From NCBI RefSeq assembly GCF_003790525.1, contig NZ_CP033635.1: 64,000 nt of DNA, one strand, 5' to 3'. The notes under the pieces were generated by a model. That model worked only from the letters and a program-made list of their open reading frames with translations, made no database searches and had not been told where the DNA came from. Shown here piece after piece: positions 18,666 through 62,855 of this stretch. Origin of the DNA: Escherichia coli. Its GTDB lineage: Bacteria; Pseudomonadota; Gammaproteobacteria; Enterobacterales; Enterobacteriaceae. Position 1 is the first letter of the stretch; the number at the start of each line of letters is the position of its first letter. The translations under genes and the position numbers were made by a program.

Positions 18666-18827
<162 letters not shown>

Positions 18828-19805
18828 TCACTGGATTCCCGGTATGAGTAACTTTTATTAACGATAAGCCAGGCTATTTGTGCATTGGTGTTGAGGTGAG
18901 AATAGCACCAGTCAGGTGAGCAGATTATAATGTTACGAGACTTAAGCACCTCTGTAGCTCCCATGGTCTGATAGTTTCTCCCGTATACCGCTCATGCAAC
19001 TCCCGCATTAAAATATACTGTTCCTTCCGGATAATTACGTTAAAATATACACCTGCGTGCATCTGTGTCAGACTCCGTTAGATACCAGCGTACATTGTAA
19101 ACATGCCGGATGCACGCAATACAATAATCGGTCTTTTCGGAGTTATAGTCACCAGGCTGGCATCCCGTAAATATGTATCAGGTAGCAATTCAGGAAGCGA
19201 ACAAAAGCGCCTGGAGAAGGTTATCTCTGATAATAATTTACATGAAATGTCTCCTTTATTCTTCGCGAATAAGGCCTTCAGTGTTCTCCCCTTTTCAGCA
19301 ATTCTTACCGTAGTAATCACTCCTGCCTGTGTATAACACGAGAATTGCCAGAGTTTAACGTTTCGGTATCGTTATCCTGCATGATGTTGAACAGAACCGG
19401 GCGTGAATTCTGCGCCAGAATTTTCTTTCGAGGAACATTCCGGGTTATCTGTAGTACAGGAGGAGATTTTCTCCTATTTCAAATAAAATTCAATGACAGG
19501 TGAATATTTAAATATAAATGCATCGCTTCAACAGAGAAATCGGAATTACGCCCGGAACCAGGCCTGAATGAATAATGGAGGAGGTAAAATAATATTATTG
19601 ATGAAAATATCAAATTAAGTCCCCCTTCTCCTTCCCCAGCTTAAATATACTTACTTTTTCACTGGATAATATGTTATTGAATTACAAAGTTGATCCTGAT
19701 ATACATGATTTCCGGCTCTTGCATCCAGTGATAACTTTATATAGTCCTGCAAAGGCGAACTTCGTAAAAGTATACTTTTCTGTTGTAAGCATTGAGGTAT
19801 CGAAA

Positions 19806-20030
19806 ATGAGTGAGAATACCGGAAAATCCCATGAAAATAAAATGGTTATTATTGACTACGGGGAATATGATGAATACCTTCGTAACGCGTGGTTCCGAGG
19901 TTTTCGGGAAGGTTATGATATGGCGATGAAATTTGGATTAGGCTGCCAGCAATGTTATGAAACAGGTGAAAAAATAGCATGCGCAAGAGCTGAAGAATGC
20001 CGTAAAAAGATTAAGGTAATAAAACACTGA
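19806..20030 (+). CDS. Hypothetical small protein (74 aa, four Cys), low-GC
   Basis: ORF 19671..20030; internal start MSENTGKSHENKMVIIDYGEYDEY...; no recognisable family. Confidence 0.25.
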   Translation: MSENTGKSHENKMVIIDYGEYDEYLRNAWFRGFREGYDMAMKFGLGCQQCYETGEKIACARAEECRKKIKVIKH

Positions 20031-20158
20031 AACGGGCTGTCTGATATTTCTGTGAGCTAAAAAGACACCGTAATACAGGTATCTCACAGTAACTGAAAGA
20101 TATGCACATGCCGCCAGGGAAGATTAAGGGTAAGGGAGGATATCCCTTACCTGATTGA

Positions 20159-20683
20159 TTATGGGATGATACCACAGGCAATTCTTGCACCACCGCCACC
20201 TAGAGGTTCAGGATGGTCATCATGATTATCACCTCCTGCGTGGAGCATTAGCGAACGGCCATCGAGCTCCTTTAATTCAGATAGTCTTGGCGCAAGCACC
20301 GGGTAGGTTGCTTTTCCGTCATGAGTGACATAAAGCGCAGGGAGATCACCTAGGTGGCCATCAGGAGACCATGGACCGAGATGCTTCCCTGTTTTTTCCG
20401 GGTCAAAGTGACCACCTGCAGATAAAGCAGCGACAGTTTTTCCATCTTTCAGGGCAGGAGCACAACTTGCGTTTTCATGTACATGAAAACCATGAATGCC
20501 GGCGGGTAAGGAGTGAAGATCAGGGGTGAACAGCAGCCCGTAGGGTGTCTTCTGGATGGTTATTTTACCAATATTTCGCTCTTTTCCGTCACTATCAACA
20601 AGATTCATTGTTACATCTTTGGTGGCTGCATATCCACAGGATGATGTAGCCAGAATCACAAAGGCAATAAGTTTACGTTTCAT
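20159..20683 (-). CDS. sodC: Periplasmic Cu/Zn superoxide dismutase (horizontally acquired paralog)
   Basis: Signal peptide; Cu/Zn SOD motifs ...[10 protein letters not shown]..., ...[12 protein letters not shown]..., ...GDLPAL..., ...[10 protein letters not shown]... Confidence 0.85.
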
Positions 20684-20938
20684 AAACCCTCTGTTAACAG
20701 GTTAAAGATTTACTCAATAACTGTTGCGAAATAACAGTCAGCCAGATGATAGCTTATGATAGTTATTGAATGTGACTATCAGTGTAATTAATTATGCAAA
20801 TTAGAAGGAATGTTATGTGTGAAGCGCCCCTGTATCCCGCTCATACTGGCTAACCCAGACACGCAGAGTCTGTGGCGTACAGCCAGCATTTGAGGCAATG
20901 GAACAAATTACCCCAATTGTGAATCATACTCATCCTGT

Positions 20939-21491
20939 TTACCTCTTTCTCAGGGAGTTTAGTCTCCAGGATTCCCGGAGCAGTTCAAAGTGCCCTGTGC
21001 TGCTTAAAGTGCCGCTGCATGCCACCACATGGCTGAGCAGCAACAGGTATTGTTGTTCCTTCATGTTGTTCACGCAACCAGCGTAATACCACCGGCGAGG
21101 ATGGACTGTCAGTGTGATTACGTTCAGTAATACGTTCATAAAAGGAAGTTCAGAATGCATGAATCTGTTGTCCGTTGATGTTTCCTTCTGTCGAATTGTG
21201 TGTGAAGTGGACAATCAGAAAATGCGGCCAGTGATCCACTGCCTGTTGAATAAAACGCCGGATGTCTCCCGGCTCTGCAAGTAATGCTTCAGTTTCCTGC
21301 ACTATTTTATCCCTGTTGAATTTTGTCAAACCGGTGCAGACACGCAGGAAAGTATGCCAGCACTGGTGTAATGCCAGTAACATACAATAAGAATGAAATG
21401 ACGAATCAGTCAGGAAAGGGTGCCCCCATTGGCAACCCATTGACTGAGCAGAGGATACAATCAGGAAGGTTAACGAGAGTATCTCCGACAT
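20939..21491 (-). pseudogene. Fragmented copy of an island gene also present at 48328..49122
   Basis: ...IRRFIQQAVDHWPHFLIVHFTHNSTEGNINGQQIHAF... matches ...IRRFIQQAVDHWPRLLAVHFTLHSAEGNINGQQIHAF... at 48328..49122; two ORF pieces in different frames. Confidence 0.35.
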
Positions 21492-22705: not shown

Positions 22706-23810
22706 TTCTGTGCACAAAAATCCGGAAACGAGTGAGCGTTTCAGGATTCTTAAACAGACCCTGGATCGGTCAACTGCTCCTAAACTGATCGGCATTACAC
22801 CTGTCGGCTGCCGTTTTTTCAGCTCCGTGATCCATGGGCCGGGTTCTTTGGTCAGCAATGCTGCCGCCCTTGCCCCATGGATAAATAATGTCCGGTGGTA
22901 GGTATCCCCACGTTTGCTTATCCCCAGCATGCGAACCTTCCCAGCGGACCCCGTCTGCTTCGGCACCAGACAGACATAAGCGTCAAACTCACGTCCGGAT
23001 TTAAATGCTGAGGCCTCGCCCATGGTGGCGACCACCGCCGTAGCGATTAACGGCCCCACACCGGGGATTTCCATTAGGCGCTTACAGTTTTCGCTCTGCC
23101 GTGCCACGCTGTTAATCTGTTTATCAAGGCCATCTATCTGCATGCCCAGCTCACTCAGTCTGTTGTACTGGTATTCAAGCACAGTGATGAGATACGGCGG
23201 CAGGTTCGTCTTCATTCGCTCTAGGGCTGTCGGTAGCTTTCTGTCCATCGCTGTCCAATCTTTGTGGAGGATTTCACCAAACTCGAGGAGCGTGCCAAGG
23301 GTATTAATATGCGAGGTTCTGAACTTCACCAGTTGTCTGCGCGAACGGTGCAGGACCAGAACTGACTGCTTCTCTTCCGTTTTAACAGCGATATCTTTAC
23401 TGGGCTGCTGTACCGCCATCCAGATAGCACGCGCATCCATCACATCATTTTTGTTGCCCATGACGAATGCTTTAACGAAGCGAGCTTGCAACAGCCGAAC
23501 TTTGTGTCCCAGTTTTTTCCAGTTCCCTCGCCCAATGTTGGGAGCCTCCACAAGCCTCCATACCTATCAGACAGGGTTCCCGGTTGCTGAAGAACGTCAG
23601 AAAATCCTTGCTACGTAGCTGCTTGTCCACCACTTCGCCCGTGTACTCATTGATGAAGTGAACCTGAATCAGATACTTTGCGATATCAACGCCAACCGGT
23701 GTATATTTCATTTGTGGAGTCGCCAGTCTGAGGGCGCTTTTGCATCCCGTATTGGGCACTATGATGCCGGAAATCTGAGAGGCTCCACAGCAGACAATTT
23801 TACCCTTCAT
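22664..23810 (-). pseudogene. IS110-family transposase (second, different copy), frameshifted; element about 22706..23870
   Basis: N-terminal ORF 23472..23810 (...MKYTPVGVDIAKYLIQVHFI...) and C-terminal ORF 22664..23551 in different frames; C-terminal tail reads through into the IS200 hairpin. Confidence 0.6.
22685..22710 (+). terminator. IS200 left-end hairpin followed by T-run (terminator-like)
   Basis: Perfect 8-bp stem CCCCCAGC/GCTGGGGG followed by TTTTCT on the plus strand. Confidence 0.4.
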
Positions 23811-23950
23811 CCATCACAGTGCACCTCTCTTAACAGGGCAGGATGTGTTCAGTACATTTCTCCTTTTATGGTTACAGTTTATCCATCATGGCGTAATTGA
23901 AGGCTGTCGTGAAGGAGAGGAAGAGCATCTCATCACTTACAAACAAATAC

Positions 23951-23970
23951 ATTAATGATAACCATTTGCA
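23951..23970. promoter_or_regulatory. Fur-box-like sequence upstream of sitA
   Basis: ATTAATGATAACCATTTGCA resembles the GATAATGATAATCATTATC consensus (partial match). Confidence 0.4.
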
Positions 23971-23990
23971 TTTGTATAGATTATGCTATA

Positions 23991-24012
23991 AAACATAGCC
24001 GTTGCTATGTTT
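23991..24012. promoter_or_regulatory. MntR-type operator palindrome upstream of sitA
   Basis: AAACATAGCCGTTGCTATGTTT, inverted repeat AAACATAGC/GCTATGTTT, about 35 bp upstream of the sitA start. Confidence 0.55.
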
Positions 24013-24044
24013 GTTCTAATTTTGCTCACTATAGGTACTGAATT

Positions 24045-24959
24045 ATGCACTCAATAAAAAAATTAACCATGCTCTTGGGGTTCCTCGCCCTCACCTGCTC
24101 GATCGCATTTCAGGCGAGTGCAACTGAAAAATTCAAGGTCATTACAACATTTACCATCATCGCAGATATGGCCAAAAACGTGGCTGGAGATGTTGCAGAA
24201 GTCTCATCCATAACCAAGCCCGGTGCGGAAATTCATGAGTATCAGCCTACCCCTGGCGATATTAAACGTGCGCAGGGGGCACAACTGATTCTCGCCAATG
24301 GAATGAATCTGGAATTGTGGTTCCAGCGCTTTTACCAGCATCTCAATGGTGTTCCAGAAGTGATTGTCTCTTCGGGTGTGACGCCAGTAGGGATCACCGA
24401 AGGCCCCTACGAGGGAAAACCTAACCCTCATGCCTGGATGTCGCCAGATAATGCTTTGATTTACGTCGATAATATTCGTGATGCGTTGATAAAATACGAT
24501 CCGGCAAATGCAAAAACATACCAACGTAATGCCGATACTTATAAAGCCAAGATTACCCAAACCCTTGCCCCCCTGCGTAAGCAGATTGCTGAACTCCCTG
24601 AGAATAAAAGATGGATGGTCACCAGTGAAGGGGCTTTTTCTTATCTCGCACGCGATTTGGGGCTAAAAGAGCTTTATCTGTGGCCGATAAATGCCGATCA
24701 ACAAGGAACACCCCAGCAGGTACGTAAAGTGGTTGATATAGTGAAGAAAAATAATATCCCAGCGGTATTTAGTGAGAGTACGGTTTCCGATAAACCAGCG
24801 CGTCAGGTTGCGCGTGAAACCGGCGCACACTACGGCGGTGTGCTCTATGTCGATTCCCTGAGCACAGAAAACGGCCCGGTACCTACGTATATCGACCTTC
24901 TGAAGGTTACTACCAGTACGCTGGTGCAGGGAATTAAAGCCGGGAAAAGGGAGAAGTAA
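24045..24959 (+). CDS. sitA: Fe/Mn ABC transporter periplasmic binding protein SitA
   Basis: 304 aa, signal peptide, metal-binding SBP; first of four co-oriented overlapping genes. Confidence 0.9.
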
Positions 24960-25786
24960 TGATGCAATCTGCGGGTATTGTCGTTAATGGCGTTACTGTC
25001 ACCTGGCGTAACGGGCACACAGCACTGCGCGATGCATCCTTCACAGTACCAGGCGGATCTATTGCCGCTCTGGTTGGGGTAAACGGTTCCGGAAAATCGA
25101 CGTTATTTAAAGCGATTATGGGATTCGTGCGTCTGACTACCGGAAAGATATCTGTTCTGGGTATTCCCACGCGGCAGGCTCTGCAGAAAAACCTGATTGC
25201 CTACGTCCCGCAGTCAGAAGAAGTGGACTGGTCCTTTCCTGTACTGGTGGAAGATGTGGTGATGATGGGCCGCTATGGGCATATGGGTATGTTGCGTATA
25301 GCCAATAAGAGGGATCGTCAGGTTGTCACCGATGCGCTGGAACGTGTCGATATGGTAGATTTTCGCCATCGACAAATCGGCGAGCTTTCCGGTGGACAAA
25401 AGAAACGCGTCTTTCTGGCGAGAGCGATTGCACAGCAGGGTGATGTGATCCTGCTGGATGAACCTTTTACCGGCGTTGATGTGAAAACCGAAGCCAAAAT
25501 CATCAGCCTGTTGAGGGAGTTACGCGCGGAAGGCAAAACGATGCTTGTCTCAACGCACAATCTCGGATCCGTCACGACATTTTGCGATTATACGGTCATG
25601 GTCAAAGGCACCGTCCTGGCAAGCGGGCCGACAGACACCACTTTTACAGCCGAGAACCTGGAGCTGGCTTTTAGCGGCGTACTACGCCATGTCACACTTA
25701 AAGGCTCGGAAGAAAGCATTATTACTGACGATGAACGCCCCTTTGTGGCTTATCGACCATCAGCGGTGCAGAGGGAAGAAAGATGA
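24959..25786 (+). CDS. sitB: Fe/Mn ABC transporter ATPase SitB
   Basis: Walker [13 protein letters not shown] signature LSGGQKKR, Walker B ILLDEP. Confidence 0.9.
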
Positions 25787-26640
25787 ACGTGCTACTGGAA
25801 CCCTTCAGCTATGAATATATGCTCAATGCGATGTGGGTCGCGGCGATGGTCGGCGGTCTCTGCGCTTTCCTGTCATGCTATCTGATGCTAAAAGGCTGGT
25901 CGCTGATTGGCGATGCGCTGTCGCACTCTATCGTCCCGGGTGTTGCGGGGGCATATATGCTGGGGCTTCCGTTTTCTCTGGGGGCCTTCTTTTCCGGTGG
26001 ACTGGCTGCGGGCAGCATGCTGTTTCTTAACCAACGCACTCGCTTAAAAGAAGATGCCATCATCGGCCTGATCTTCTCGTCCTTTTTTGGCCTGGGGCTG
26101 TTTATGGTGTCATTAAACCCGACATCCGTAAATATTCAGACCATCGTCCTGGGCAATATTCTGGCAATCGCTCCGGCGGATATCCTGCAACTCACTATCA
26201 TTGGCATTGTCTCAGTCATAGTGCTCTTTTTCAAATGGAAAGATCTTATGGTGACCTTTTTCGACGAGAATCACGCCCGTGCTATTGGATTATATCCAGG
26301 AAGATTAAAAATCCTCTTCTTCACACTGCTGGCGGTATCGACCGTTGCAGCATTGCAAACGGTTGGGGCTTTTCTGGTGATCTGTCTGGTAGTGACCCCT
26401 GGCGCAACAGCATGGTTGTTAACCGATCGTTTTCCCCGCCTGCTCGTGATTGCTGTAACTATTGGCAGTGTAACCAGTTTCCTCGGCGCGTGGGTCAGTT
26501 ACTTTCTGGACGGAGCGACAGGTGGAATCATCGTGGTGGCGCAGACACTGCTGTTTCTTTTAGCATTTGTCTTTGCACCCACCCATGGGCTTTTGGCAAA
26601 TCGTCAGCGTGCGCATAAGGTGCTGGAGGATCGCTCATGA
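25783..26640 (+). CDS. sitC: Fe/Mn ABC transporter permease SitC
   Basis: 285 aa polytopic membrane protein, overlapping start/stop with sitB and sitD. Confidence 0.9.
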
Positions 26641-27515
26641 TGGCATTATTACTGGAGCCACTGCAGTTCACCTTTATGAGTCACGCACTGCTGATTTCAC
26701 TGGTAGTTTCCATACCCTGTGCGCTGCTGTCGGTCTTTCTGGTCCTGAAAGGTTGGGCACTGATGGGAGACGCGATGAGTCATGCGGTTTTTCCTGGTAT
26801 CGTGCTTGCGTGGATACTGGGTTTTCCTCTGGCGGGAGGAGCATTCGTCGCCGGAGTATTCTGCGCGGTGGCGACGGGATACCTGAAAGACAACAGCCGA
26901 ATCAAGCAAGATACAGTGATGGGGATTGTTTTTTCTGGCATGTTTGCCGCAGGTCTGATCTTGTATATTGCAGTCAAACCCGACGTACATCTTGACCATA
27001 TTCTTTTCGGCGACATGCTCGGGGTAACCATCGGCGATATAATCCAGACGGTGATTATTGCCGGGCTGGTTACACTTGTTATTAGCGTAAAATGGCGGGA
27101 TTTTTTGCTGTTCAGCTTTGATTATCAACAGGCGCAGGTAAGCGGTTTGCATACGAGATGGCTGCATTATGGGCTGCTGTGCATGGTCTCTCTGACCATT
27201 GTGGCGACGCTGAAAGCGGTAGGTATCATTCTCTCCATTTCTCTGCTCATTGCGCCTGGCGCCATTGCGGTACTCCTGACGCAACGCTTTCATATTGCGC
27301 TCCTGCTGGCGCTCGGTATATCGGTAATGGTCTCAATGACTGGTGTATGGCTCTCCTTTTTTATAGACAGCGCACCAGCACCAACGATTGTTATCTTATT
27401 CACGGTTGTATTCATCCTGACGTTTACCGCTTCCAGCATCAATGCTCACGCGAAGGAAAATGTCGATCCACAGGATCTCCCGACTAGTACAACAACCAGA
27501 GAGCAACATCTGTAG
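26637..27515 (+). CDS. sitD: Fe/Mn ABC transporter permease SitD
   Basis: 292 aa polytopic membrane protein. Confidence 0.9.
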   Translation: MMALLLEPLQFTFMSHALLISLVVSIPCALLSVFLVLKGWALMGDAMSHAVFPGIVLAWILGFPLAGGAFVAGVFCAVATGYLKDNSRIKQDTVMGIVFSGMFAAGLILYIAVKPDVHLDHILFGDMLGVTIGDIIQTVIIAGLVTLVISVKWRDFLLFSFDYQQAQVSGLHTRWLHYGLLCMVSLTIVATLKAVGIILSISLLIAPGAIAVLLTQRFHIALLLALGISVMVSMTGVWLSFFIDSAPAPTIVILFTVVFILTFTASSINAHAKENVDPQDLPTSTTTREQHL

Positions 27516-27839: not shown

Positions 27840-28510
27840 ACTGCAGGTGATTCAGGGGGGCCAGTCTAACCGTTAAGAACACGTTCCCGAGATGAGCGTT
27901 TCCGTTGTCGCTCATGTAAAACATGTTTTCCAGCTCACTTACTCTTGGTGAAGTCAGGAAACCCGGCGTTAAGGAGCAGATCGTTGAAATGGCACATAAC
28001 GGCGCAGGTGTCCGTGATACCCATGAACACTGAAAATCGGCATCAATACCGTCATACGGACATTAAAAATGTTTTCGCCCCGGCGGATAACATCTACGCC
28101 AGTCGTTCACGCTGATGTTGCCCTTATCTTTGAAACTTGATGAGCAGTTAAATTTCGTTGGCAGCAAGGCGCAACAACACTGGTCTGCTTACAACACTAA
28201 AACTGCGGTGTGTTGGCTTATTCTTTCGGGCCACGGAATGATGAGACCTGTCGGGAACTGTTAGCCCTGTTGACTTCGTTCTATATCGGCATAGTGACCA
28301 GCAATGACAGGGGCTGCAACGTCAGAGAAGTGACGAAGGAGAAATACCTGACCGGTAAAATATTCACGCAACCTATTGAACTTAACAACCTGCCCCTCCG
28401 CACCCGCATCAAGCGGCTGGCACGTAAAACAATCTGCTTCTCGCGTTCCGTGAAAATCAACGAAAAAGTCATCGGTTCCGTCATTGAAAAGAACATGTTC
28501 TACTGATTGG
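27840..28510 (+). pseudogene. Degenerate IS1-family element (InsA/InsB-like frames with stops)
   Basis: InsB-like ...LTGKIFTQPIELNNLPLRTRIKRLARKTICFSRSVKINEKVIGSVIEKNMFY; related to copy at 46690..47400. Confidence 0.45.
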
Positions 28511-30104: not shown

Positions 30105-32306
30105 TCAGAATAATACTGAGTAACTCAGACCAAAGGTGCGGCCCCTGCCTTTGTAGCCGTACAGTGAAGCAGGGCCGTAACCCGGGCTGTAGTACAGTGG
30201 CGCACGCTGCCCCCAGACAGTGGTGTAGTCACGGTCGAAGAGGTTTTCAATGCTGAAGCTGAGTGTACCCACCGGAAGCTGATAACTGCCAAGCAAATCG
30301 ACGATGGTATAGCCATCGACCTTGTAGCCCTGCGCGTCGCTCACGTCAAAGGAGGTGGTGCTCTGCACTCGCAGACTCCACGGGTCCGGTGCCCAGCCAA
30401 TGTAGGCTGTCGCTTTTGATGGGCTTGCTGTCTTCACATCGTATTTCTGCCAGGTACCGTTCACTTTCGACTCAGTTTTCAGCACGTTGAAGTTCACTCC
30501 GGTACTCCAGTCAGTATCAGGAATCAGGTAGTCCACCGCACCTTCCACGCCGTAAATACGGCGTTTGTCGTCCACCACACTGATGGTCAGATCTTTATTC
30601 GCCACCACGCTCTTATCAGAAATCGAATAGTAGGCCGCGATTTGGGTGCGCAGATTATTGCCAGTAAAGCGCCAGCCCAGCTCATAAGAATCGACTTTCA
30701 CGCCTTCCAGCTTGCTGTCGCTGACGTTCACACTCTTTGTTAGAGGAAGATGGCCGTTCACTGCAGCACCATAGATGCCGCGACCATAGTATTTACCCGG
30801 GTCCGGCAGCTCCACGCCCTGGGAGAAGTTGAGCCATGCCTGCTGGCGTTCGGTGATATGCATCAGCAGACCAGCGTTGAACAGGAAGTTGTCGTAATCG
30901 ACTGAGCCGCCAGGAATGGCGTCGGCGGATATAGCCTTCCCGGCGGCAATCTGCCGTTGCTGCGCGTAGCCGATGAAATCATCAATCTTGTTTTCAGTGT
31001 ACTGATAGCGTACGCCACCGTTGAGGGTAAAGAGATTATTGATGTCATAGCCTGATTGCAGGAAGACCGCCAGGTTGGTGATGTCATATGACGGATAGCG
31101 CCCGGTGGTGTAAATCTTCTTGTTGTTCAGCCCTCCGGAAGCGCTTGCTTGAGCCAGGTCGAAGAACATCTGGTTGGAGGTAAAGCGCTCATGATCAGCA
31201 TCCAGCCCCCAGGTGATTTGCCAGCCGTCCATCGGTTTGCTGTTCAGAGTCAGTTTCATGCCGTACTGGTCGGTGTCCTGCTGTGACGAAGAGAAAGCCG
31301 TCACCTGTTTGTTCGCATTTACCGTCGGGAACGGGTAGAATCGCAACGACTCATCGCGGTAGTAAACCTGACCGACCAGCTCCTGTCCCAGGAAAGCGCT
31401 GTCAGAGTACTGCAGGCTGATCAAATGCCGCTCAGTGCCGGGAATACGGTCGGAATTCAGCCCGTTACTGACGAAGGGCGTGCTGGTCCCTCTGATGGCA
31501 GAGAAGCCTTTCCCGAGATTAAGCCCGTAATCGTCGTCGCCCTGGCTTTTATAGTACTGTGTGATCAACTGAAGCTGCCGGGATTCATCGATGTTCAACG
31601 TTCCAGTTCCCATGATGTCCAGCCGATCGGAGTACTGCAGGCCGGTCTGGGTGTTATCAAGCAGGGTGGCATCGCCGTTACCGTCAAACCAGCCGCCAAA
31701 TTTCTGATATGCCACGGAAAGACGTCCGGAGATATGCTCATTTCCGCCGGAGACAGCTCCGGCAATGCGTTCATCGTGATCTTTACTGCTGCTAAAGCCA
31801 CTTTTGGTGCCAGCCTCAAACTCCTTCATGGTTTCCGGCTGGCCTTTTTTGCTCACGATGTTGATCAGGCCACCGGTACTGCCGCCGCCATACAGGGACG
31901 TCGCACCGGAGATCACTTCAATATGGTCGATATTAAAAGGATCTATAGAGTCCAGTTGTCGGCTGTCGGTACGTGAAGAGTTGAGACGCACGCCGTCAAC
32001 CAGCACGACCAGCGGGCGGCCACGCACATTCATACCGTAGTTGGTGCGGCTCCGGCTGCTGACGTCAAGGCCAGGGATCAGCTGAGCCAGTGCGTCCTTA
32101 AGCTCTTTGCCGCCCTGAATCTGCTGTTCCAGTTCGGCGTTTTCGATAACCCAGGTGGTTTGTGCCATCTCCGCTACGGTGCGATTGCTGCGGTTGGCAG
32201 ACACCACGAACGTTTCATCATCGGTTTGTTGAGCGACTGCTGGCGCCATCATGGTAAGAAGCAGTGGGTTGAGAGCCCAAAGCGTATACTTTTTGCTTAT
32301 CATCAT
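30105..32306 (-). CDS. iutA: Ferric aerobactin TonB-dependent outer-membrane receptor IutA
   Basis: 733 aa, signal peptide, TonB-dependent receptor plug and barrel, C-terminal ...YSVLF. Confidence 0.95.
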   Translation of the reverse strand: MMISKKYTLWALNPLLLTMMAPAVAQQTDDETFVVSANRSNRTVAEMAQTTWVIENAELEQQIQGGKELKDALAQLIPGLDVSSRSRTNYGMNVRGRPLVVLVDGVRLNSSRTDSRQLDSIDPFNIDHIEVISGATSLYGGGSTGGLINIVSKKGQPETMKEFEAGTKSGFSSSKDHDERIAGAVSGGNEHISGRLSVAYQKFGGWFDGNGDATLLDNTQTGLQYSDRLDIMGTGTLNIDESRQLQLITQYYKSQGDDDYGLNLGKGFSAIRGTSTPFVSNGLNSDRIPGTERHLISLQYSDSAFLGQELVGQVYYRDESLRFYPFPTVNANKQVTAFSSSQQDTDQYGMKLTLNSKPMDGWQITWGLDADHERFTSNQMFFDLAQASASGGLNNKKIYTTGRYPSYDITNLAVFLQSGYDINNLFTLNGGVRYQYTENKIDDFIGYAQQRQIAAGKAISADAIPGGSVDYDNFLFNAGLLMHITERQQAWLNFSQGVELPDPGKYYGRGIYGAAVNGHLPLTKSVNVSDSKLEGVKVDSYELGWRFTGNNLRTQIAAYYSISDKSVVANKDLTISVVDDKRRIYGVEGAVDYLIPDTDWSTGVNFNVLKTESKVNGTWQKYDVKTASPSKATAYIGWAPDPWSLRVQSTTSFDVSDAQGYKVDGYTIVDLLGSYQLPVGTLSFSIENLFDRDYTTVWGQRAPLYYSPGYGPASLYGYKGRGRTFGLSYSVLF

Positions 32307-32387
32307 TATTCCTCCACACGGGCGGAAAAAATCAGCCCAAAGATGCTGTGTAGCGAGTTAAAGAAGCAGCCTCCGGCTGCGTTTTCC

Positions 32388-33665
32388 CTAGGTGCCGCTG
32401 CGCCACTGAATCAGGGCGGGCGGCATACTGAGATCGAATAAATCACGTCCCATTACACGATTAAGAATACGTGCAGATCTCCATGCCATCAGGCTGAGCT
32501 GAGGTTCGGCGATGCCATGGGTTTGCATACTGGCGTTGACCACGAAGATGTTGTTCTCTTTCGGGCCACTCCATTCCAGAGTGAAGTCATCACGCACTTT
32601 AAAGGTGTTCTTATCGTGCATGGTGATCAGCGGCATCAGTGAGGGAAGTATTTGTGGCAACGCAGAACGGTAACCTGTGGCGAAAATCACCACATCACTT
32701 TCCAGGCTCTCCCTGCCCTGATCCAGATGATGCTCCATCAGCAACTTCCAGCCAGGACCACTACTTTCCAGAGTTGTTACCGAGCGGCTGGGTAGCAGAC
32801 GGATATTTCTTGGTTTTCTCAGAACTTCAAAACGGTGGTACAACTCACGATAAATGGTCAGTAAAGAATCGGCAGTGATGCCATCCGATGTCATTTTCTG
32901 CTCATCCAGTAACTGATGGCGAATATCTTCCTCCAGTCCGGAGAAGCCTGAAATATATTCAGGTGTAAAATACTCATCAGCAAAAGCAGCCTCATCCAGT
33001 GCGTTAAAATTATTCCGCCGGGAGATCCAGTTTATTTCCGCCGCTTCTCCCCATTCCCCGCGTAATGCATTAAGGAACAGGTCTGCACCACTCTGTCCTC
33101 CACCAACCACGGTTACCCGTTTTTCACTAAGGTCCGGCCGACGAAGATTCATTTCACTGGCATGGAAACAGGATTGTGTCATATGCTTCACACAGGGTGG
33201 TAAATAAGGTTGTTTTCCTGTACCAAGGCAGATATTGTGGGCAAAATATTCTCCCCGGCTGGTTTGCACCAGAAACAATCGACGTTTTTTATCGAAATCA
33301 ATGTTTTCAACGGTATGACTGAAATACAGGTTATTCATATCTTCAGCAGCCCAGCGGAGGTAGTCAGAAAACTCTTCACGGGATACTGTACGTAGTCTGC
33401 TTGTAAGGAAGCGATAGAACTTTTTGTGCTTCACCAGATAGTTAACAAAGCTGTAGGGATTTGTAGGTGCAACAGCACTGACCAGATCTTTCAGAAAGAC
33501 GGTCTGCATATGACAATCCGGTACCAGCATACCCGGATGCCAGGAAAAATGAGGATGTTCATCAAAGAAGAGACAGTCCAGTTCTTCGATCTGATGTGAC
33601 AACGCAGCAATGCTGAGATTAAATGGCCCTGTCCCTACACCAATAAAATCGACACTTTTTTTCAT
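32388..33665 (-). CDS. iucD: L-lysine N6-monooxygenase IucD
   Basis: 425 aa, N-terminal FAD-binding GVGTGPFNLS, second dinucleotide motif VVGGGQSG. Confidence 0.95.
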   Translation of the reverse strand: MKKSVDFIGVGTGPFNLSIAALSHQIEELDCLFFDEHPHFSWHPGMLVPDCHMQTVFLKDLVSAVAPTNPYSFVNYLVKHKKFYRFLTSRLRTVSREEFSDYLRWAAEDMNNLYFSHTVENIDFDKKRRLFLVQTSRGEYFAHNICLGTGKQPYLPPCVKHMTQSCFHASEMNLRRPDLSEKRVTVVGGGQSGADLFLNALRGEWGEAAEINWISRRNNFNALDEAAFADEYFTPEYISGFSGLEEDIRHQLLDEQKMTSDGITADSLLTIYRELYHRFEVLRKPRNIRLLPSRSVTTLESSGPGWKLLMEHHLDQGRESLESDVVIFATGYRSALPQILPSLMPLITMHDKNTFKVRDDFTLEWSGPKENNIFVVNASMQTHGIAEPQLSLMAWRSARILNRVMGRDLFDLSMPPALIQWRSGT

Positions 33666-35404
33666 GATTCATATTCCTGAGTTACCAGCCACAGCGGATT
33701 TTGCAGATCCTCAAGGTAATTCGGCAGCATGCGGCTGCCGCCATCCAGATCAGGCCAGGTCAGTTTTACCGGGTTCAGCACCACGCGAATGATTTGTGGC
33801 CTGAAAAGTGAGAAAAGCGCAAAACGCTCTGACATTTGTGGATGTTTTTTCATGTAATCACTCAACACTGCTGCCAGCAGTTGATAAAATCGCCGTTCAG
33901 GTACGCCAAGACGAACCATCAGTGGCGAAATAAAACGCAGTACTGTCACGAAGTGACCCGTCTGCAAATCATGGATTAAGTAGTCCGCACTCAGGCGGGA
34001 TGTAACATCACGAACCTCCTGAGGCAAAGAGTCCATTTCGGGGAACTCTTCTTTCACCAGCCGCATATCGCCCTGGAAGTCTTTCAGCAGAACACGCTGT
34101 GGAACCCCCTTTTTCATGGCGAGCGTTATATTTTGTCCATGTGCAATAAGCGCGACACCGTAGCGGCAAAGCAGGTGATACAGAGGAACCACGACCACCC
34201 GGAACAGTTGCGTAAGCCAGGTTTCAGCGTCCAGCCCGGAGCGGTCTATATATGCGCCTGCCAGCGGCTGATCGTTTTCGTCGCACTCCATCAGTGTTGC
34301 CATCAGAACCGGACTTTCATCCGGTTTCAGCCAGCGGCACGGATTCTCCCGCCAGATAACACCAAGCATTTCCTGGTAGCGATAGGGAGCCCGGGCAAGC
34401 GCGGCATAGCCTTCATGGGAGACATAGCCTGCAGCCGGTTCACCAAGGATCACTGCACCGCTTTGCACCAGGGTAGCGTCGGTCGCAAAAACCTGTTGTA
34501 GCCAGCGTGAAGCCAGTGGTCCGGCAGCGATGTATCTGCCAGGAATCCCCCGGTAGCATGAGGTGTTGTAGATGGTCAGCGGCAGCTTGATATCCAGCCC
34601 ACCCCGGCGACTGGCGTTGGTCAGGGTACGCAGCGACTGCTGGGCGAGCCACTGGTCGCCAAACTCGCCGAGAGACACCATCCTGCCTTCGGCAAAATCA
34701 GCGATGAAGTCGGTGGCGATTTTTTGCTGCCACTGCCACGGATGTACAGGCAGCGGCAGCCAGTTATGATCCAGTCCGTTTTCCTGCCAGACCTGACTGA
34801 AGCGGGCAAACTCCTGCGGATCCATTGCGGCCGTCAACAACTGATGAATATCCATCTCGTTATCACAGCGCCAGATCATATGTTCACGTTTTACCGCCAG
34901 CCAGTGCAGTCTAAAGGTGTTGGCATACTCTGGCGCATATCGTTCCAGCGCCTCTTTACCCCAGCCACGGCGACCTTTATTAAAAACGAATTTAGGATGA
35001 CCGCTCAGCAGGCATTGCAGGCGGTCGGCACTAAGATTAATCAGGTCACTGGCGCTCAGCCCGCGACGGGCTTTCAGCAGTTGCAGGTCGCCCAGCAGCG
35101 TGGAATACAAATCCTGCATATGCTCAGCAACGGTTGCATCGCTCATTGACAGTACCTGCTTTAGCTGCATCAGCAGCGTCTGAGCCAGTACTGGCTCGTC
35201 CGCGCAGCGCAGAGTTTGAGCATCAATCCAGAGCCAGCCCCAGATACCACGTTCAGCGATGAAGCGCCATTGTGCTCCCGGCAGGTTAATGCAGTAGCGG
35301 TCATCGCCCTGAGATTCCGCGTGGAAAACCTGCTCATACTCCAGCTCAGACAACATTTTTGCCACCAAGCGGCGGTTGACCAAATCCCAGTCTTTGTGAT
35401 TCAT
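33662..35404 (-). CDS. iucC: Aerobactin synthase IucC
   Basis: 580 aa IucA/IucC-family siderophore synthetase; start overlaps iucB stop. Confidence 0.95.
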   Translation of the reverse strand: MNHKDWDLVNRRLVAKMLSELEYEQVFHAESQGDDRYCINLPGAQWRFIAERGIWGWLWIDAQTLRCADEPVLAQTLLMQLKQVLSMSDATVAEHMQDLYSTLLGDLQLLKARRGLSASDLINLSADRLQCLLSGHPKFVFNKGRRGWGKEALERYAPEYANTFRLHWLAVKREHMIWRCDNEMDIHQLLTAAMDPQEFARFSQVWQENGLDHNWLPLPVHPWQWQQKIATDFIADFAEGRMVSLGEFGDQWLAQQSLRTLTNASRRGGLDIKLPLTIYNTSCYRGIPGRYIAAGPLASRWLQQVFATDATLVQSGAVILGEPAAGYVSHEGYAALARAPYRYQEMLGVIWRENPCRWLKPDESPVLMATLMECDENDQPLAGAYIDRSGLDAETWLTQLFRVVVVPLYHLLCRYGVALIAHGQNITLAMKKGVPQRVLLKDFQGDMRLVKEEFPEMDSLPQEVRDVTSRLSADYLIHDLQTGHFVTVLRFISPLMVRLGVPERRFYQLLAAVLSDYMKKHPQMSERFALFSLFRPQIIRVVLNPVKLTWPDLDGGSRMLPNYLEDLQNPLWLVTQEYES

Positions 35405-36351
35405 TACAGACCGACCTCCGTGAAGAAGTGATGACGATCCGCCATCACCATGCGCGAGCGTTTATGTGGGAAGTCGAACTCTTTAATTGTCCGGTATCCC
35501 GCAGGCTCAAGATGGCGGAACAGGCGCTGGTTATCGGTGCGTGGCTCCAGTACTGTGCGCTGCGTACGTGGCTCATTCAGCAGCAGGTAATGTGTCACCC
35601 CGCGCAGCCAGCTTTGCACATAGTGGGCTCCGCGCCATTGCTGTTCACCAACCAGCAGATGCAGGCCACGGTCAAAGGGCTGCCACGAATAGTGGCGACC
35701 AATGCGGTCTTCCGCCGCCCAGTAGATTTCGAAATAACTGAACGGCCGATCGTCGAAACAACCAATCAGCGGGAATGCATGTTTACTGGTGAGCTGGCGT
35801 TCCAGATAGGCGATCTGTACCTCCAGTGAGCCACTTTGCTCCCAGAAATACTCAACGCGCGGATCGTTCATCCAGCGAGTGAAACGTTCTGCATCAGAAA
35901 CGGGATCGGCAATGCGGAAACTCAGCATCCTGCGAATGCGTGGATCGTAACGACGATAAACTTCACCCTGCGGACGGGGGGGGCGCTGCGGGAAATAAAT
36001 CTCACGCTCTGCATCAAAAACCATTTCACCGGAGGCCCGGTTTGCCGGAGAACTCAGCCATAACGGTAACTGCCAGAAAGCGGAACGATGGATAATGTCG
36101 CTTTGTACCTGTCCGAAAAGCGTCAGCGCCTGTGGCTCCTCACACCATTCGGACCAGGGAAGAACCACTGCTGAAAGTTGTGGTGCGGCGATAAATATCT
36201 GATCCAGCGCGTCGCACAGCCATCCTGTTGGCAGCTCCCCGGGCCAGTGCAACACCGCGCTATTGTCCAGCCCCCAGCCAAGATTCAGAGGCTTGTCGAG
36301 TTTTTCACAGCGCAGTCCATATCCGCTGTGAACAATGTTTGCCCCAGACAT
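35404..36351 (-). CDS. iucB: N6-hydroxylysine O-acetyltransferase IucB
   Basis: 315 aa acetyltransferase. Confidence 0.95.
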   Translation of the reverse strand: MSGANIVHSGYGLRCEKLDKPLNLGWGLDNSAVLHWPGELPTGWLCDALDQIFIAAPQLSAVVLPWSEWCEEPQALTLFGQVQSDIIHRSAFWQLPLWLSSPANRASGEMVFDAEREIYFPQRPPRPQGEVYRRYDPRIRRMLSFRIADPVSDAERFTRWMNDPRVEYFWEQSGSLEVQIAYLERQLTSKHAFPLIGCFDDRPFSYFEIYWAAEDRIGRHYSWQPFDRGLHLLVGEQQWRGAHYVQSWLRGVTHYLLLNEPRTQRTVLEPRTDNQRLFRHLEPAGYRTIKEFDFPHKRSRMVMADRHHFFTEVGL

Positions 36352-58621: not shown

Positions 58622-58639
58622 ATCAGAAAGGGGATTCTG

Positions 58640-59284
58640 ATGAGCAGCATTATCACCATCACAGTGTATACGCTGGATGAACTTTCCTGCCCGGTACGGG
58701 GAAAAGCCCGCGACGGGTACCGTCAGCATCATGCTGACAGCAACTGGTATGAAAACGTGTATGAGGACTTCAGGGCGGTCTGTGACATTTTCGGAATTGA
58801 CCTCCGCCAGCGCGTTTTCCGGCTCAGCAACGGCAGGTTTATGGAAGAGCCGTGCATCTGGTTCAGCGGATGCTGCAGCCAGGGGGACGGAGCCTGTTTT
58901 GAAGGACGCTGGCACTGGCAGCCGGCGACAGCCCGGATAATCCGGAAGTATGCCCCACAGGAGCATGAACTCCATCGTATCGCGGATGCCCTGCAGGCGG
59001 TGCAGAAGCGTAACTTCTGGCAACTGCAGGCTGAAATCCACCGCCGGGGACGCTACTGCCATCCGTACAGCATGGATATCACTGTTACCCGGAACAGTCC
59101 GACTGGTCAGACTATGACAACAGATGCGGAAGCCGCTGTCAGCGAAGCCCTGCGCGACCTGGCCTTATGGCTGTACCGTCAACTGGAAAACGAGCACAAC
59201 AGGCTGACCTCAGATGCCCCTGTGGATGAGGCCCTTCTCATCAACGAATACACCTTCACCGAAGCCGGTCTGCGCACCGGCTGA
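58640..59284 (+). CDS. Hypothetical protein (214 aa) inserted between the DUF987-like gene and the antitoxin
   Basis: Cys-rich segment ...CIWFSGCCSQGDGACFEG...; family not recognised. Confidence 0.45.
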   Translation: MSSIITITVYTLDELSCPVRGKARDGYRQHHADSNWYENVYEDFRAVCDIFGIDLRQRVFRLSNGRFMEEPCIWFSGCCSQGDGACFEGRWHWQPATARIIRKYAPQEHELHRIADALQAVQKRNFWQLQAEIHRRGRYCHPYSMDITVTRNSPTGQTMTTDAEAAVSEALRDLALWLYRQLENEHNRLTSDAPVDEALLINEYTFTEAGLRTG

Positions 59285-59333
59285 CCTGTCAAAGTTAAAC
59301 TATCATTCAACGATTTTCTGTGAGGATTTTATC

Positions 59334-59702
59334 GTGTCAGACACACTCCCCGGGACAACGCATCACGACGACAATCACGACCGCCTCTGGTGGGGACTGC
59401 CCTGCACCGTGACGCCCTGTTTCGGGGCACGTCTGGTGCAGGAGGGTAACCGGTTGCATTACCTTGCCGACCGTGCCGGTATCAGAGGCCGGTTCAGAGA
59501 TGCGGATGCGTACCATCCGGACCAGGCCTTTCCGCTGCCGATGAAACAACTGGAGCTCATGCTCACCAGCGGTGAACTGAATCCCCGCCATCAGCATACC
59601 GTGACACTGTATGCGAAGGGGCTGACCTGTGAAGCCGACACCCTCGGCTCCTGTGGTTACGTTTATCTGGCTGTTTATCCGACGCCCGAAACGAAAAAGT
59701 AA
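59334..59702 (+). CDS. Type IV antitoxin, CbeA/YeeU/YfjZ family
   Basis: GTG start after GAGGA; [54 protein letters not shown]... Confidence 0.75.
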
Positions 59703-59791
59703 ATCATCAGAATAATCTTCTGCTCCGGCCTGGTGTTTTCACCACGCCACTGTCCCATTTTTTATCTCTGCATATCAGGAAAATCTTCATT

Positions 59792-60166
59792 ATGAAAACA
59801 TTACCCGACACGCATGTACGGGAGGCATCGTGTTGCCCGTCTCCCGTCACCATCTGGCAGACACTGCTCACCCGGTTACTGGACCAGCATTACAGCCTTA
59901 CGCTGAATGACACACCGTTCGCGGATGAACGCGTGATTGAGCTGCATATTGAGGCAGGCATTTCACTGTGTGATGCGGTGAACTTTCTCGTGGAAAAATA
60001 CGCGCTGGTGCGTACCGACCAGCCGGGATTCAGCGCCTGTACCCGCTCTCAGTTAATAAACAGCATCGATATCCTCCGGGCTCGCAGGGCGACCGGCCTG
60101 ATGACCCGCGACAATTACAGAACGGTAAATAACATTACCCTGGGTAAGTATCCGGAGGCGAAATGA
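59792..60166 (+). CDS. Type IV toxin, CbtA/YeeV/YpjF family
   Basis: 124 aa, [43 protein letters not shown]... Confidence 0.75.
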
Positions 60167-60588
60167 TGAAACTGGCCCTGACATTGGAAGCAGACAGCGT
60201 TAACGTACAGGCACTGAATATAGGGCGAATTGTCGTTGACATTGATGGTGTTGAGCTCACTGAACTGATTAACAAGGTCGCTGAATACGGTTATTCACTC
60301 CGCGTGGTGGATGAACGTGACGCTACCGAAACACCGGCGACTTCTGCCAGCTCTCATCAGTTGCCGGAAGACAATACAGTGATACAGAGCGTGATGCCAT
60401 TAACCACTGAAACAGCGCTGGATATCCTCATTGCGTGGCTGCAGGACAATATCGACTGCGGGTCCGGAATTATTTTCGACAACGATGAGGATAAAACGGA
60501 TTCGGCAGCATTGTTGCCCTGTATCGAACAGGCCAGGGAGGATATCCGTACCCTGCACCAACTGCAACTTCTGCACCAGAACCGGTGA
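60163..60588 (+). CDS. Hypothetical protein (YeeW-like position)
   Basis: 141 aa acidic protein, start overlaps toxin gene stop. Confidence 0.4.
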
Positions 60589-60672
60589 ATCTCACTCACC
60601 AGACTTCATTCTCCTGACGCCAGCCTGAACAGAGCTGGCGTTTTCATTTATCTGCAAAAAGGAAAAACGATT

Positions 60673-61458
60673 ATGTCAGATACCACACTCTCCCGCCCGG
60701 AGGTGGTCAGCGGGCATACGGACGTTATCTGTTCCACCTCAGTCTGCCACATTCTGGCTGTACGAAAGAGTACACTGTTGCCAATCGACACACTTATCCG
60801 GCAACTGGCTAAAATCTCAATTCTGACGGAAAGTATTGGAGGTAAAACCGCCCCGGACTGGGCCATGAAACAGGATTTTCGCTGTGGCTGCTGGCTGAAG
60901 GAGAAACAGGAAACCGCAATGAAAGCCATTACCCGCAACCTTGACCGTGAAATCTGGCGTGACCTGATGCAACGTTCAGGGATGCTTTCCTTAATGGATG
61001 CACAGGCCCGTGATACATGGTACCGCTCACTGGAGTACGATAATTTTCAGGAAATCAGCGAAGCGAACATTCTGAGCACATTTGAACAAGTGCACCAGAA
61101 CAAGGATGAGGTGTTTAAGCGGGGAGTGATTAACGTCTTCAGGGAACTGAGCTGGAATTATAAAACCAACTCTCCCTGTAAATTTGGAAGTAAAATCATT
61201 ATCAACAATCTGGTGAGATGGGACCGGTGGGGATTTCATCTTATCACCGGACAACAGACTGACCGACTCGCCGACCTGGAAAGAATGCTACATCTGTTCA
61301 GCGGCACCCCCATCCCCGGCAACGGGAAAAACATAACCATTCATCAGGATGGCACATCCAGTCTGTTCAGGGTAAAGAGTGCTATGAAGATGAGATGTTC
61401 AGTATCAGATACTTTAAGAAGGGCTCCGCGCATATCACGTTTAAACATCCGGAACTAA
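60673..61458 (+). CDS. Hypothetical protein, last gene of the island module
   Basis: 261 aa ORF; family not confidently recognised. Confidence 0.4.
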   Translation: MSDTTLSRPEVVSGHTDVICSTSVCHILAVRKSTLLPIDTLIRQLAKISILTESIGGKTAPDWAMKQDFRCGCWLKEKQETAMKAITRNLDREIWRDLMQRSGMLSLMDAQARDTWYRSLEYDNFQEISEANILSTFEQVHQNKDEVFKRGVINVFRELSWNYKTNSPCKFGSKIIINNLVRWDRWGFHLITGQQTDRLADLERMLHLFSGTPIPGNGKNITIHQDGTSSLFRVKSAMKMRCSVSDTLRRAPRISRLNIRN

Positions 61459-61685
61459 TGGAAAGCTGAACTGGTAATTTCTAAGTATCTGCCCTCTAAT
61501 TCGATTTCGTAATACAGAACATCGAGTCAAACAGAATAATGGAGGAAGACAGAAAAAAGAGGAAAAATAGCACCAGAAGAATTCGAACTGCGCAAGGGGC
61601 CTTATTGGTGGCCCCTAAAAAACACAAACAAAACAACAAATGAAAAAACAATAGATTATACATCTAGTTTTATTCCTAAGGAGAG

Positions 61686-62855
61686 ATGATGCGCCATTGT
61701 GGGTGGTTGCTGGGATTGTTATCGCTGTTTTCTTTGGCAACACATGCCAGTGACTGGCAGGAAATAAAAAATGAGGCCAAAGGACAAACCGTCTGGTTTA
61801 ACGCCTGGGGCGGCGATACCGCAATTAACCGCTATCTCGACTGGGTTAGCGGCGAGATGAAAACCTATTACGCTATAAACCTGAAGATTGTTCGTCTGGC
61901 GGATGCCGCAGACGCGGTAAAGCGCATTCAGACCGAAGCTGTTGCCGGACGTAAAACGGGCGGCTCGGTGGATCTGCTCTGGGTGAACGGCGAAAACTTC
62001 CGCACCTTAAAAGAGGCCAATTTATTACAAACGGGCTGGGCGGAGACTCTGCCCAACTGGCGCTATGTCGACACACAGCTGCCGGTGCGGGAAGATTTTT
62101 CAGTGCCTACAGAAGGGGCTGAATCGCCCTGGGGGGGCGCGCAACTGACGTTTATCGCCCGCCGCGATGTTACGCCGCAGCCACCACAAACGCCGCAAGC
62201 CTTACTGGAGTTTGCTAAAGCCAATCCCGGCACGGTTACCTATCCGCGCCCACCGGACTTTACCGGCACGGCGTTTCTTGAACAGTTGCTGATTATGCTA
62301 ACGCCAGATCCCACAGCATTAAAAGAAGCGCCGGACGATGCGACTTTCGCCCGCGTCACTGCGCCCTTGTGGCAATATCTTGATGCACTGCATCCGTATT
62401 TGTGGCGCGAAGGAAAGGATTTCCCGCCTTCGCCCGCGCGGATGGATGCTCTGCTGAAAGCTAACACATTGCGCCTGTCGCTGACCTTTAACCCTGCACA
62501 TGCGCAGCAAAAAATCGCCAGCGGCGATTTGCCTGCAAGCAGTTACAGTTTTGGTTTTCGCGAGGGGATGATTGGCAACGTCCATTTCCTCACCATTCCT
62601 GCCAACGCGAATGCCAGTGCTGCGGCGAAGGTAGTTGCCAATTTCTTGCTCTCACCCGATGCGCAACTGCGTAAAGCAGATCCCGCTGTCTGGGGCGATC
62701 CTTCTGTTCTCGATCCGCAAAAACTGCCTGACGGGCAGCGCGAAACATTGCAATCGAGAATGCCGCAGGATCTGCCGCCGGTACTGGCTGAACCGCACGC
62801 AGGTTGGGTAAATGCGCTGGAACAAGAATGGCTACACCGTTACGGTACGCATTAA
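61686..62855 (+). CDS. ynjB: ABC transporter periplasmic substrate-binding protein YnjB
   Basis: 389 aa, signal peptide MMRHCGWLLGLLSLFSLATHA; sequence as I recall for E. coli YnjB. Confidence 0.85.
   Translation: MMRHCGWLLGLLSLFSLATHASDWQEIKNEAKGQTVWFNAWGGDTAINRYLDWVSGEMKTYYAINLKIVRLADAADAVKRIQTEAVAGRKTGGSVDLLWVNGENFRTLKEANLLQTGWAETLPNWRYVDTQLPVREDFSVPTEGAESPWGGAQLTFIARRDVTPQPPQTPQALLEFAKANPGTVTYPRPPDFTGTAFLEQLLIMLTPDPTALKEAPDDATFARVTAPLWQYLDALHPYLWREGKDFPPSPARMDALLKANTLRLSLTFNPAHAQQKIASGDLPASSYSFGFREGMIGNVHFLTIPANANASAAAKVVANFLLSPDAQLRKADPAVWGDPSVLDPQKLPDGQRETLQSRMPQDLPPVLAEPHAGWVNALEQEWLHRYGTH

Follow-up and report, generated by a model that had tools for sequence, protein, structure and literature searches.

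Putative Fur and MntR operators of the sit and aerobactin operons in an insertion sequence-rich chromosomal island of Escherichia coli

Described metal-regulated promoters and the present island

In Salmonella enterica, both Fe-Fur and Mn-MntR repress sitABCD, an operon orthologous to the one examined here (Ikeda et al. 2005, J Bacteriol 187:912, as relayed in PMC3852070 and PMC3212961). There, as at our locus, the promoter has a Fur box and, after it, an MntR inverted repeat. Repression of sitABCD by MntR and Fur is also covered in PMC3852070, PMC8970401 and PMC8264917 (dual repression additionally in PMC3212961). Binding and repression by MntR that depend on manganese have been described for the homologues from Salmonella, Shigella and E. 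coli (PMC3852070, PMC8970401), and loss of fur in Salmonella derepressed sitA 53.8-fold (PMC3212961, Table S2). Like sit, the mntH locus of E. coli K-12 controls a manganese importer, and it too is subject to dual repression by Fur and MntR (Patzer and Hantke 2001, as relayed in PMC3852070). The mntH promoter reads GAATTTGATAATCATTCTC, 15 nt, AAACATAGCAAAGGCTATGTTT, ribosome-binding site and ATG, which is the same order of Fur box and then palindrome as upstream of sitA, although mntH is a core chromosomal gene and sit is here the cargo of an island. For aerobactin, the operator of pColV-K30 has two Fur sites in promoter P1, upstream of iucA as in our study, of which the primary one covers the −35 and the secondary one the −10 (de Lorenzo et al. 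1987 and Escolar et al. 2000, as relayed in PMC3788343 and PMC2189734). The Fur box and promoter region are common to aerobactin and the divergent gene shiF (PMC6918656).

The window, by which we mean the whole 64-kb stretch of DNA analysed, is 100 % identical to the chromosome of E. coli SMS-3-5 (NC_010498.1, 3227129–3291128). It holds two metal-uptake operons and a divergent transporter gene, located as follows.

24045–27515, plus strand: sitABCD, Fe/Mn ABC importer operon (RefSeq annotation)
30105–38076, minus strand: iucABCD-iutA, aerobactin synthesis and receptor operon (RefSeq annotation)
38212–39405, plus strand: shiF-type MFS transporter gene, divergent from iucA (RefSeq annotation, MFS superfamily match)

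These gene calls, which had been made from the letters of the DNA in the earlier note, were found to be right by RefSeq annotation and by a family scan, in which SitA matched Mn/Fe substrate-binding-protein families and IucA matched NIS synthetase families. We considered whether iucD was a true pseudogene, which would weaken the case for functional cargo, and rejected this, as its 3′ end and 425-aa ORF are the same as in a ColV plasmid. The island is crowded with fragments of the IS1, IS2, IS3, IS21, IS66, IS110, IS200, IS256 and ISL3 families and also contains a group II intron pseudogene. A tRNA scan of the 64-kb window revealed no tRNA gene.

Repression of sit by Fur and MntR, and of iuc and shiF by Fur, is textbook knowledge, so that the finding itself is already known: the sit and iuc operators described below are real, intact and ordinary. 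They are very probably, to judge from their sequences, the usual cis-acting control sites of two metal-uptake operons that were acquired horizontally. Support for this comes from identity or similarity to characterized operators, from conservation, from statistical enrichment and from the presence of both regulators in the host. Actual binding, transcription starts and steric mechanism we infer by homology with Salmonella sit, E. coli mntH and the iuc operon of pColV-K30.

Putative operators and candidate promoter of sitA

The region between the insertion sequence remnants and sitA contains the following elements, none of the operators being assigned to a strand.

23951–23974: putative Fur operator of sitABCD, with three overlapping matrix matches (matrices and conservation)
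23972–23993: degenerate MntR-type palindrome (site 1), TTGTATAGATTATGCTATAAAA, with the core ATAGa-N4-GCTAT at 23976–23989
23991–24012: putative MntR operator (site 2) with a perfect palindrome, AAACATAGCCGTTGCTATGTTT; its first base lies 54 nt ahead of the sitA ATG
23965–23992, plus strand: candidate sitA promoter, with −35 TTTGCA (23965–23970), a 16-nt spacer and an extended −10 TGcTATAAA (23984–23992), from a relaxed scan

Site 2 is the palindrome of the MntR type that had been noted before, and it is present at exactly the coordinates then given. A search with the pattern AAACATAGC-N4-GCTATGTTT, allowing up to three mismatches, generated a single match in the 64 kb, compared to 0.00 expected from 100 shuffles. 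The K-12 mntH site AAACATAGCAAAGGCTATGTTT has the very same half-sites and an equally long spacer of 4 nt, although the central spacer reads AAAG at mntH and CGTT at sitA. Across 167 kb of E. coli chromosome examined, exact ATAGC-N4-GCTAT cores were seen at dps, mntS and sitA only, and dps and mntS are both MntR targets. The half-site string returned unrelated primer matches only from the full-text literature. By its repeat, its place in the promoter of a manganese-homeostasis operon and the presence of the cognate regulator in the host, 23991–24012 is a putative MntR operator.

A palindrome of 22 bp can also be read as an RNA hairpin that attenuates or terminates transcription in the sitA leader, or as an inverted repeat derived from an insertion sequence, and a terminator scan did mark 23991–24012 as a nine-pair stem followed by a T-rich tail. 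However, the fold of 23972–24044 was no more stable than that of shuffled sequence (z=−0.41, with 57 of 200 shuffles as good), only three of the pairs are G-C and there was no match in Rfam. The arms are kept across genera as sequence (ATAGC and GCTAT) without compensatory change, and the same motif stands upstream of mntH, mntS and dps. The palindrome moreover lies within sit-homologous DNA and not within IS DNA. The hairpin or terminator reading was rejected on account of the fold, which resembles that of shuffled sequence, and the lack of an Rfam match; we regard hairpin and IS-derived repeat together as extremely improbable.

Our study also revealed a companion to site 2. Site 1 was overlooked in the earlier note, which gave the downstream MntR site only. 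Its core matches 9 of the 10 specified positions and lies exactly 19 bp upstream of the core of site 2. The corresponding upstream site is less well preserved in the Citrobacter/Salmonella type, matching at 8 or 9 of the 10 positions in the Citrobacter loci. The same 19-bp tandem of MntR cores was found at the mntS (rybA) promoter of both K-12 and SMS-3-5, where, again, a distance of exactly 19 bp separates two ATAGC-N4-GCTAT cores, although mntS encodes a small protein and sitABCD a transporter. The mntS tandem was detected using the 14-nt core pattern; the strict 22-mer pattern, with up to three mismatches allowed, gave no match in the mntS–mntR region of K-12. At mntH, in contrast to sitA, there is a single full palindrome.

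Conservation of this arrangement was assessed in SitA-encoding loci from one genome per species, of which 21 Enterobacterales loci were examined, and in 3 E. coli alleles (SMS-3-5, UTI89 and a ColV plasmid). These 24 sit promoters represent approximately 20 Enterobacterales species, from roughly ten genera, together with the three E. coli alleles. All 24 carry the array of a Fur-like box ending in CATTT, an ATAGC-N4-GCTAT core and a second core 19 bp further on, the 19-bp offset being invariant, and column conservation was highest on the four ATAGC and GCTAT arms. The exact double core, with its 20 specified bases, occurs at the sit promoters of 10 loci. In Citrobacter, array and spacing are as in the window, and the Fur box contains the entire published 18-nt Salmonella site. 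The array was absent from the sit loci of Rhizobiales, Pseudomonas and the other non-enteric organisms examined. Non-enteric sit operons are controlled by a Fur-like manganese regulator rather than by MntR, and the missing array fits that form of control.

For sit and mntS in Enterobacterales, a pair of sites at a fixed 19-bp centre-to-centre distance may take the place of the single 'MntR box' that is usually drawn, and the upstream member of the pair may double as the −10 region. If the pair is truly obligate, it would point to cooperative binding of two MntR dimers. We found no description of tandem sit sites in the searchable literature, and the tandem may well be known already.

The Fur-like sequence upstream of sitA was also found where it had been reported, the best 19-mer being ATTAATGATAACCATTTGC at 23951–23969, which begins 94 nt before the sitA ATG. 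It matches the consensus at 14 of 19 positions. An equally good match (14/19) occurs at one other locus in the window, at position 20212, inside IS2, and consensus matching alone is consequently weak evidence for a Fur box at sitA. As plain consensus matching was uninformative, two matrices were used instead, both of them small proxies with independent training lists. Matrix 1 drew on 14 sites predicted at classical iron genes under Fur repression in Salmonella (PMC3212961, Table S2), excluding sitA, and matrix 2 on nine literature iron boxes (PMC10665472), excluding the aerobactin box and the consensus.

With matrix 1, the best six of 127,966 window positions were three overlapping or adjacent ones at iucA (22.9, 22.2 and 17.8 bits) and three overlapping ones at sitA (16.1, 15.2 and 15.0 bits), compared to 12.05 bits for the next-best position and a training range of 14.7–25.2 bits. 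Matrix 2 gave 24.4 and 23.9 bits at iucA and 20.05 bits at sitA, the next best being 14.8 bits and the training range 15.4–23.2 bits. The check proposed in the earlier note was a weight-matrix scan, with scores below threshold counting against the sites; because the sitA and iucA sites rank at the top with both matrices, neither Fur box falls below threshold. The sitA sequence might still be regarded as a chance match in AT-rich DNA, with MntR the sole regulator of sit here, and the 14/19 match with its equal in IS2 would agree with this. However, the site ranks directly after iucA with two independent matrices, is homologous to a box matching at 17 of 19 positions in the sit locus of UTI89 and in other E. 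coli sit loci, and keeps a fixed place ahead of the MntR sites in the 24 sit promoters. In addition, its three overlapping matches lie 6 bp apart, which is typical of Fur arrays. We therefore consider a chance match highly improbable. With scores in the matrix range and a conserved position, 23951–23974 is a putative Fur box, and one that would overlap the −35 region.

The candidate sitA promoter was the best in the relaxed scan, whereas a strict sigma-70 scan of 23940–24045 gave no promoter; for this reason the overlap of the operators with −35, −10 and +1 is one that we infer, and the −10 and the right arm of site 1 are inseparable by sequence alone. In the proposed arrangement, three operators (Fur, MntR site 1 and MntR site 2) would stand back to back over the likely promoter. 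The Fur site at 23951–23974 would cover the −35 region, site 1 (23972–23993) the spacer and −10, and site 2 (23991–24012) the edge of the −10 and the transcription start. Fe-Fur would occlude the promoter in the presence of ample iron, and Mn-MntR, probably as two adjacent dimers, would do so in the presence of ample manganese. As either complex would suffice for occlusion, the transporter would be made only when both metals are scarce.

The iucA–shiF divergent region

The segment between iucA and shiF was predicted to contain the following elements.

38119–38137, minus strand: primary Fur box of the aerobactin promoter, GATAATGATAATCATTATT, matching the consensus at 18 of 19 positions and with the top matrix score in the window
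38098–38116, no strand assigned: secondary Fur site over the iucA −10, TAAAATAATAACAATTATG, scoring 17.75 bits (matrix 1) and 13.6 bits (matrix 2)
38111–38139, minus strand: strong, P1-like iucA promoter, with −35 TTGATA (38139–38134), 17 nt and a TG-extended −10 CATAAT (38116–38111), from a promoter scan (10/12 matches)
38105–38133, plus strand: candidate shiF promoter, ATAACA-17-TATCAT, from a promoter scan, overlapping the same primary Fur box

A near-consensus Fur box had been placed at 38117–38140, and the best 19-mer, at 38119–38137, does lie within that interval. It is the only site in the window within three mismatches of the consensus, with 0.03 expected, and it overlaps both the −35 and the spacer of the iucA promoter on the minus strand. 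The secondary site was overlooked in the earlier note. Together, the two sites agree exactly with the layout published for P1 (PMC3788343, PMC2189734), and the position of the candidate shiF promoter fits the sharing of the box described in PMC6918656. The primary box differs at one base from the pColV-K30 sequence, reading GATAATGATAATC here and GATAATGAGAATC in K30. PMC10665472 prints the latter 19-mer without naming K30 as its source.

Unlike that of pColV-K30, the aerobactin region studied here is chromosomal and lies in an IS-ridden island, yet hundreds of ColV-type plasmids match it at an identity of 99 % or more. The 171-bp iucA–shiF intergenic segment was recovered at ≥99 % identity from 634 plasmid records, mostly conjugative Escherichia plasmids, and was covered over at least 80 % of its length in 826 records. 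A box over the −35, a secondary site over the −10, identity with the ColV type and a fur gene in the host together mark this segment as a putative P1/Fur operator of aerobactin. The near-consensus box and the secondary site would let Fe-Fur block the aerobactin promoter, and Fe-Fur would probably block the divergent shiF promoter too.

The IS110 junction and probable retention of metal control

Upstream of the sitA Fur box, the sit-derived DNA gives way to remnants of an insertion sequence.

22781–23943 (right end approximate), minus strand: IS110-family remnants, comprising a transposase pseudogene (22781–23711) and 5′ IS sequence (RefSeq annotation, matches)

Within these remnants, 23600–23860 matched ISEc66 and 23863–23934 matched DNA found just upstream of another IS110-family transposase. 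Homology to the sit loci of UTI89, ST131, WP4-S18 and the ColV plasmid begins at approximately 23942–23953, some 8–10 bp upstream of the Fur box. Approximately 93 nt further upstream are common to the other E. coli sit loci, and IS110-family remnants occupy their place here; in comparison with Salmonella sit, too, the native DNA upstream of the Fur box has been replaced by these remnants. The missing ~93 nt were sought across the window and were not found in it, so that any regulatory input possibly carried there would be lost. The exact IS110/sit junction was recovered from 53 complete E. coli chromosomes of human, poultry and swine origin; over 201 nt, identity was 100 % for 52 of these chromosomes and 99.5 % for the 53rd. 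This indicates an established feature of a lineage rather than a one-off event.

The junction raises the question of whether sit, though its operators are present, is wired differently here, such that the insertion, the loss of ~93 nt and a weaker Fur box shift basal promoter strength or the iron response and leave MntR control intact. The end of homology to the UTI89, ST131 and ColV-plasmid loci and the fixation of the junction across 53 chromosomes are consistent with such a change, as is the matrix 1 score of the sitA Fur box, at 15.0 bits here versus 23.8 bits for the UTI89 allele. However, the variant bases of the box (AACC and TTTGC) are also found at the sit Fur box in Enterobacter and Cedecea, and this recurrence looks like allelic variation and not decay. 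Salmonella sit carries a different allele, with CAAATAAGAATTATTTTC in place of ATTAATGATAACCATTTGC, and with matrix 1 that site scored 14.8 bits and the K-12 mntH Fur box 14.1 bits. The sitA box here is on a par with both, and both genes are Fur-repressed according to the literature. Furthermore, the whole 19-mer and the putative core promoter lie within sit-derived DNA, and the IS transposase gene is directed away from sitA. Altered wiring of sit thus appears unlikely. Taken together, an obligate pair of MntR operators at sit and mntS and an IS110-clipped sit region with a retuned iron response form a proposition that we hold as tentative and rather doubtful.

Ordinary, retained control is the reading that we prefer. 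The earlier note had concluded that the acquired uptake genes keep their regulatory wiring despite the surrounding IS turnover, and the sequence evidence supports this through the operators, their conservation and the regulators of the host, with the caveats that ~93 nt have been lost and that the sit Fur box is weaker. In SMS-3-5, mntR is intact at 844862–845329 and fur at 709445–709891, and 5421 of 5426 complete E. coli genomes carry mntR.

In summary, our findings are of little importance beyond annotation. The tandem MntR sites with their fixed 19-bp spacing and the IS110 junction adjoining the Fur box are the only items with any freshness, and the triple sitA operator, the 19-bp MntR tandem and the IS junction at the Fur box could guide the design of reporters or work on MntR cooperativity. 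The chromosomal sit–iuc island, carried by an environmental, multidrug-resistant E. coli lineage, appears to keep the canonical elements of iron and manganese control. With these elements kept and with Fur and MntR encoded in the core genome of the host bacterium, expression of the two uptake systems should stay limited to metal-limited conditions, such as those met within a host.

Tandem MntR-type palindromes upstream of sitA and mntS

The MntR-type palindrome that the earlier note had reported upstream of sitA was found not to stand alone, as a second palindrome of the same type lies exactly 19 bp upstream of it, measured from core to core.

23951-23969, Fur box upstream of sitA
23972-23993, second MntR-type palindrome
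23991-24012, MntR-type palindrome of the earlier note

This offset was invariant in all enterobacterial sit promoters compared (24/24; loci L007-L047, the retrieved regions upstream of sitA), and the same 19 bp tandem is carried by the mntS promoter, both in K-12 (3055-3095 of retrieved locus L090) and in a further retrieved E. coli locus (L092, 6734-6774). In many genera the 6 nt centres of the two palindromes, CCTGTG and CACAGG, are reverse complements of each other, and the tandem there thus forms a single palindrome of ~40 bp.

The IS110-family junction and further Fur- and promoter-like matches

The Fur box upstream of sitA begins only ~8-10 bp downstream of the point at which sit-homologous DNA starts (junction ~23942-23953). 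IS110-family remnants (22781-23934) precede this point, and IS110-family DNA replaces ~93 nt that are common to other E. coli sit loci. The same junction is shared by 53 complete chromosomes of E. coli, whose sources were human, chicken and swine, with 100 % identity in 52 and 99.5 % in the remaining one.

After the iucA and sitA boxes, the next-best match to the Fur matrix, which was built from nine literature iron boxes, scored 14.8 bits (19838-19856, GTCAATAATAACCATTTTA). It sits at the left end of an IS2 copy (19801-21029), with periplasmic sodC (18823-19347) lying some hundreds of bp away, and is probably a chance match.

Upstream of the main iucA promoter, a promoter-like pair, CTGACA-18-AATGAT, was observed on the minus strand (38153-38158 and 38129-38134), which, like the main promoter, overlaps the Fur box. 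This pair may be P2, the second promoter of the aerobactin operon.

Other island cargo and the ends of sitD and iucD

Other cargo of the island was placed as follows, and no tRNA genes were found within the window.

9761-11616, IbrB-like protein and PAPS-reductase-like protein, an ibrAB-type pair
43214-44840, YadA-like adhesin fragment and sigma-factor-like HTH protein
48000-61700, block typical of CP4-type integrative elements (antirestriction gene, YeeU/CbtA toxin-antitoxin pair, ParDE pair and several DUF genes), its end adjoining kpsF at ~63289

SitD is 292 aa long in the window versus 285 aa in plasmid pF1055-1. Near the 3′ end of the gene (27470-27515), a 7 nt gap puts the final codons out of frame and relocates the stop codon. 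Downstream, the DNA is unrelated to the pF1055-1 sequence, with an IS1 remnant further on at 27894. RefSeq lists iucD (32332-33665) as a frameshifted pseudogene. Its 425 aa ORF (32388-33665) and 3′ end agree with the counterpart in a ColV plasmid; over the 221 nt that were compared, the two differ by three base substitutions, and the stop codon is unaffected. The pseudogene call probably stems from a reference model that is longer, and not from true inactivation.

Possible promoter placement in Enterobacter and Lelliottia

The Enterobacter and Lelliottia sit promoters (L007, L008 and L010) carry a perfect −35 element, TTGACA or TTGATA, with TATTTT or CATTTT 16 nt downstream of it, inside the Fur box. 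Accordingly, the sit promoter of these genera may lie further upstream than that of E. coli, and both MntR sites may fall downstream of the transcription start, where bound MntR may block the path of the polymerase (a roadblock) instead of occluding the promoter.
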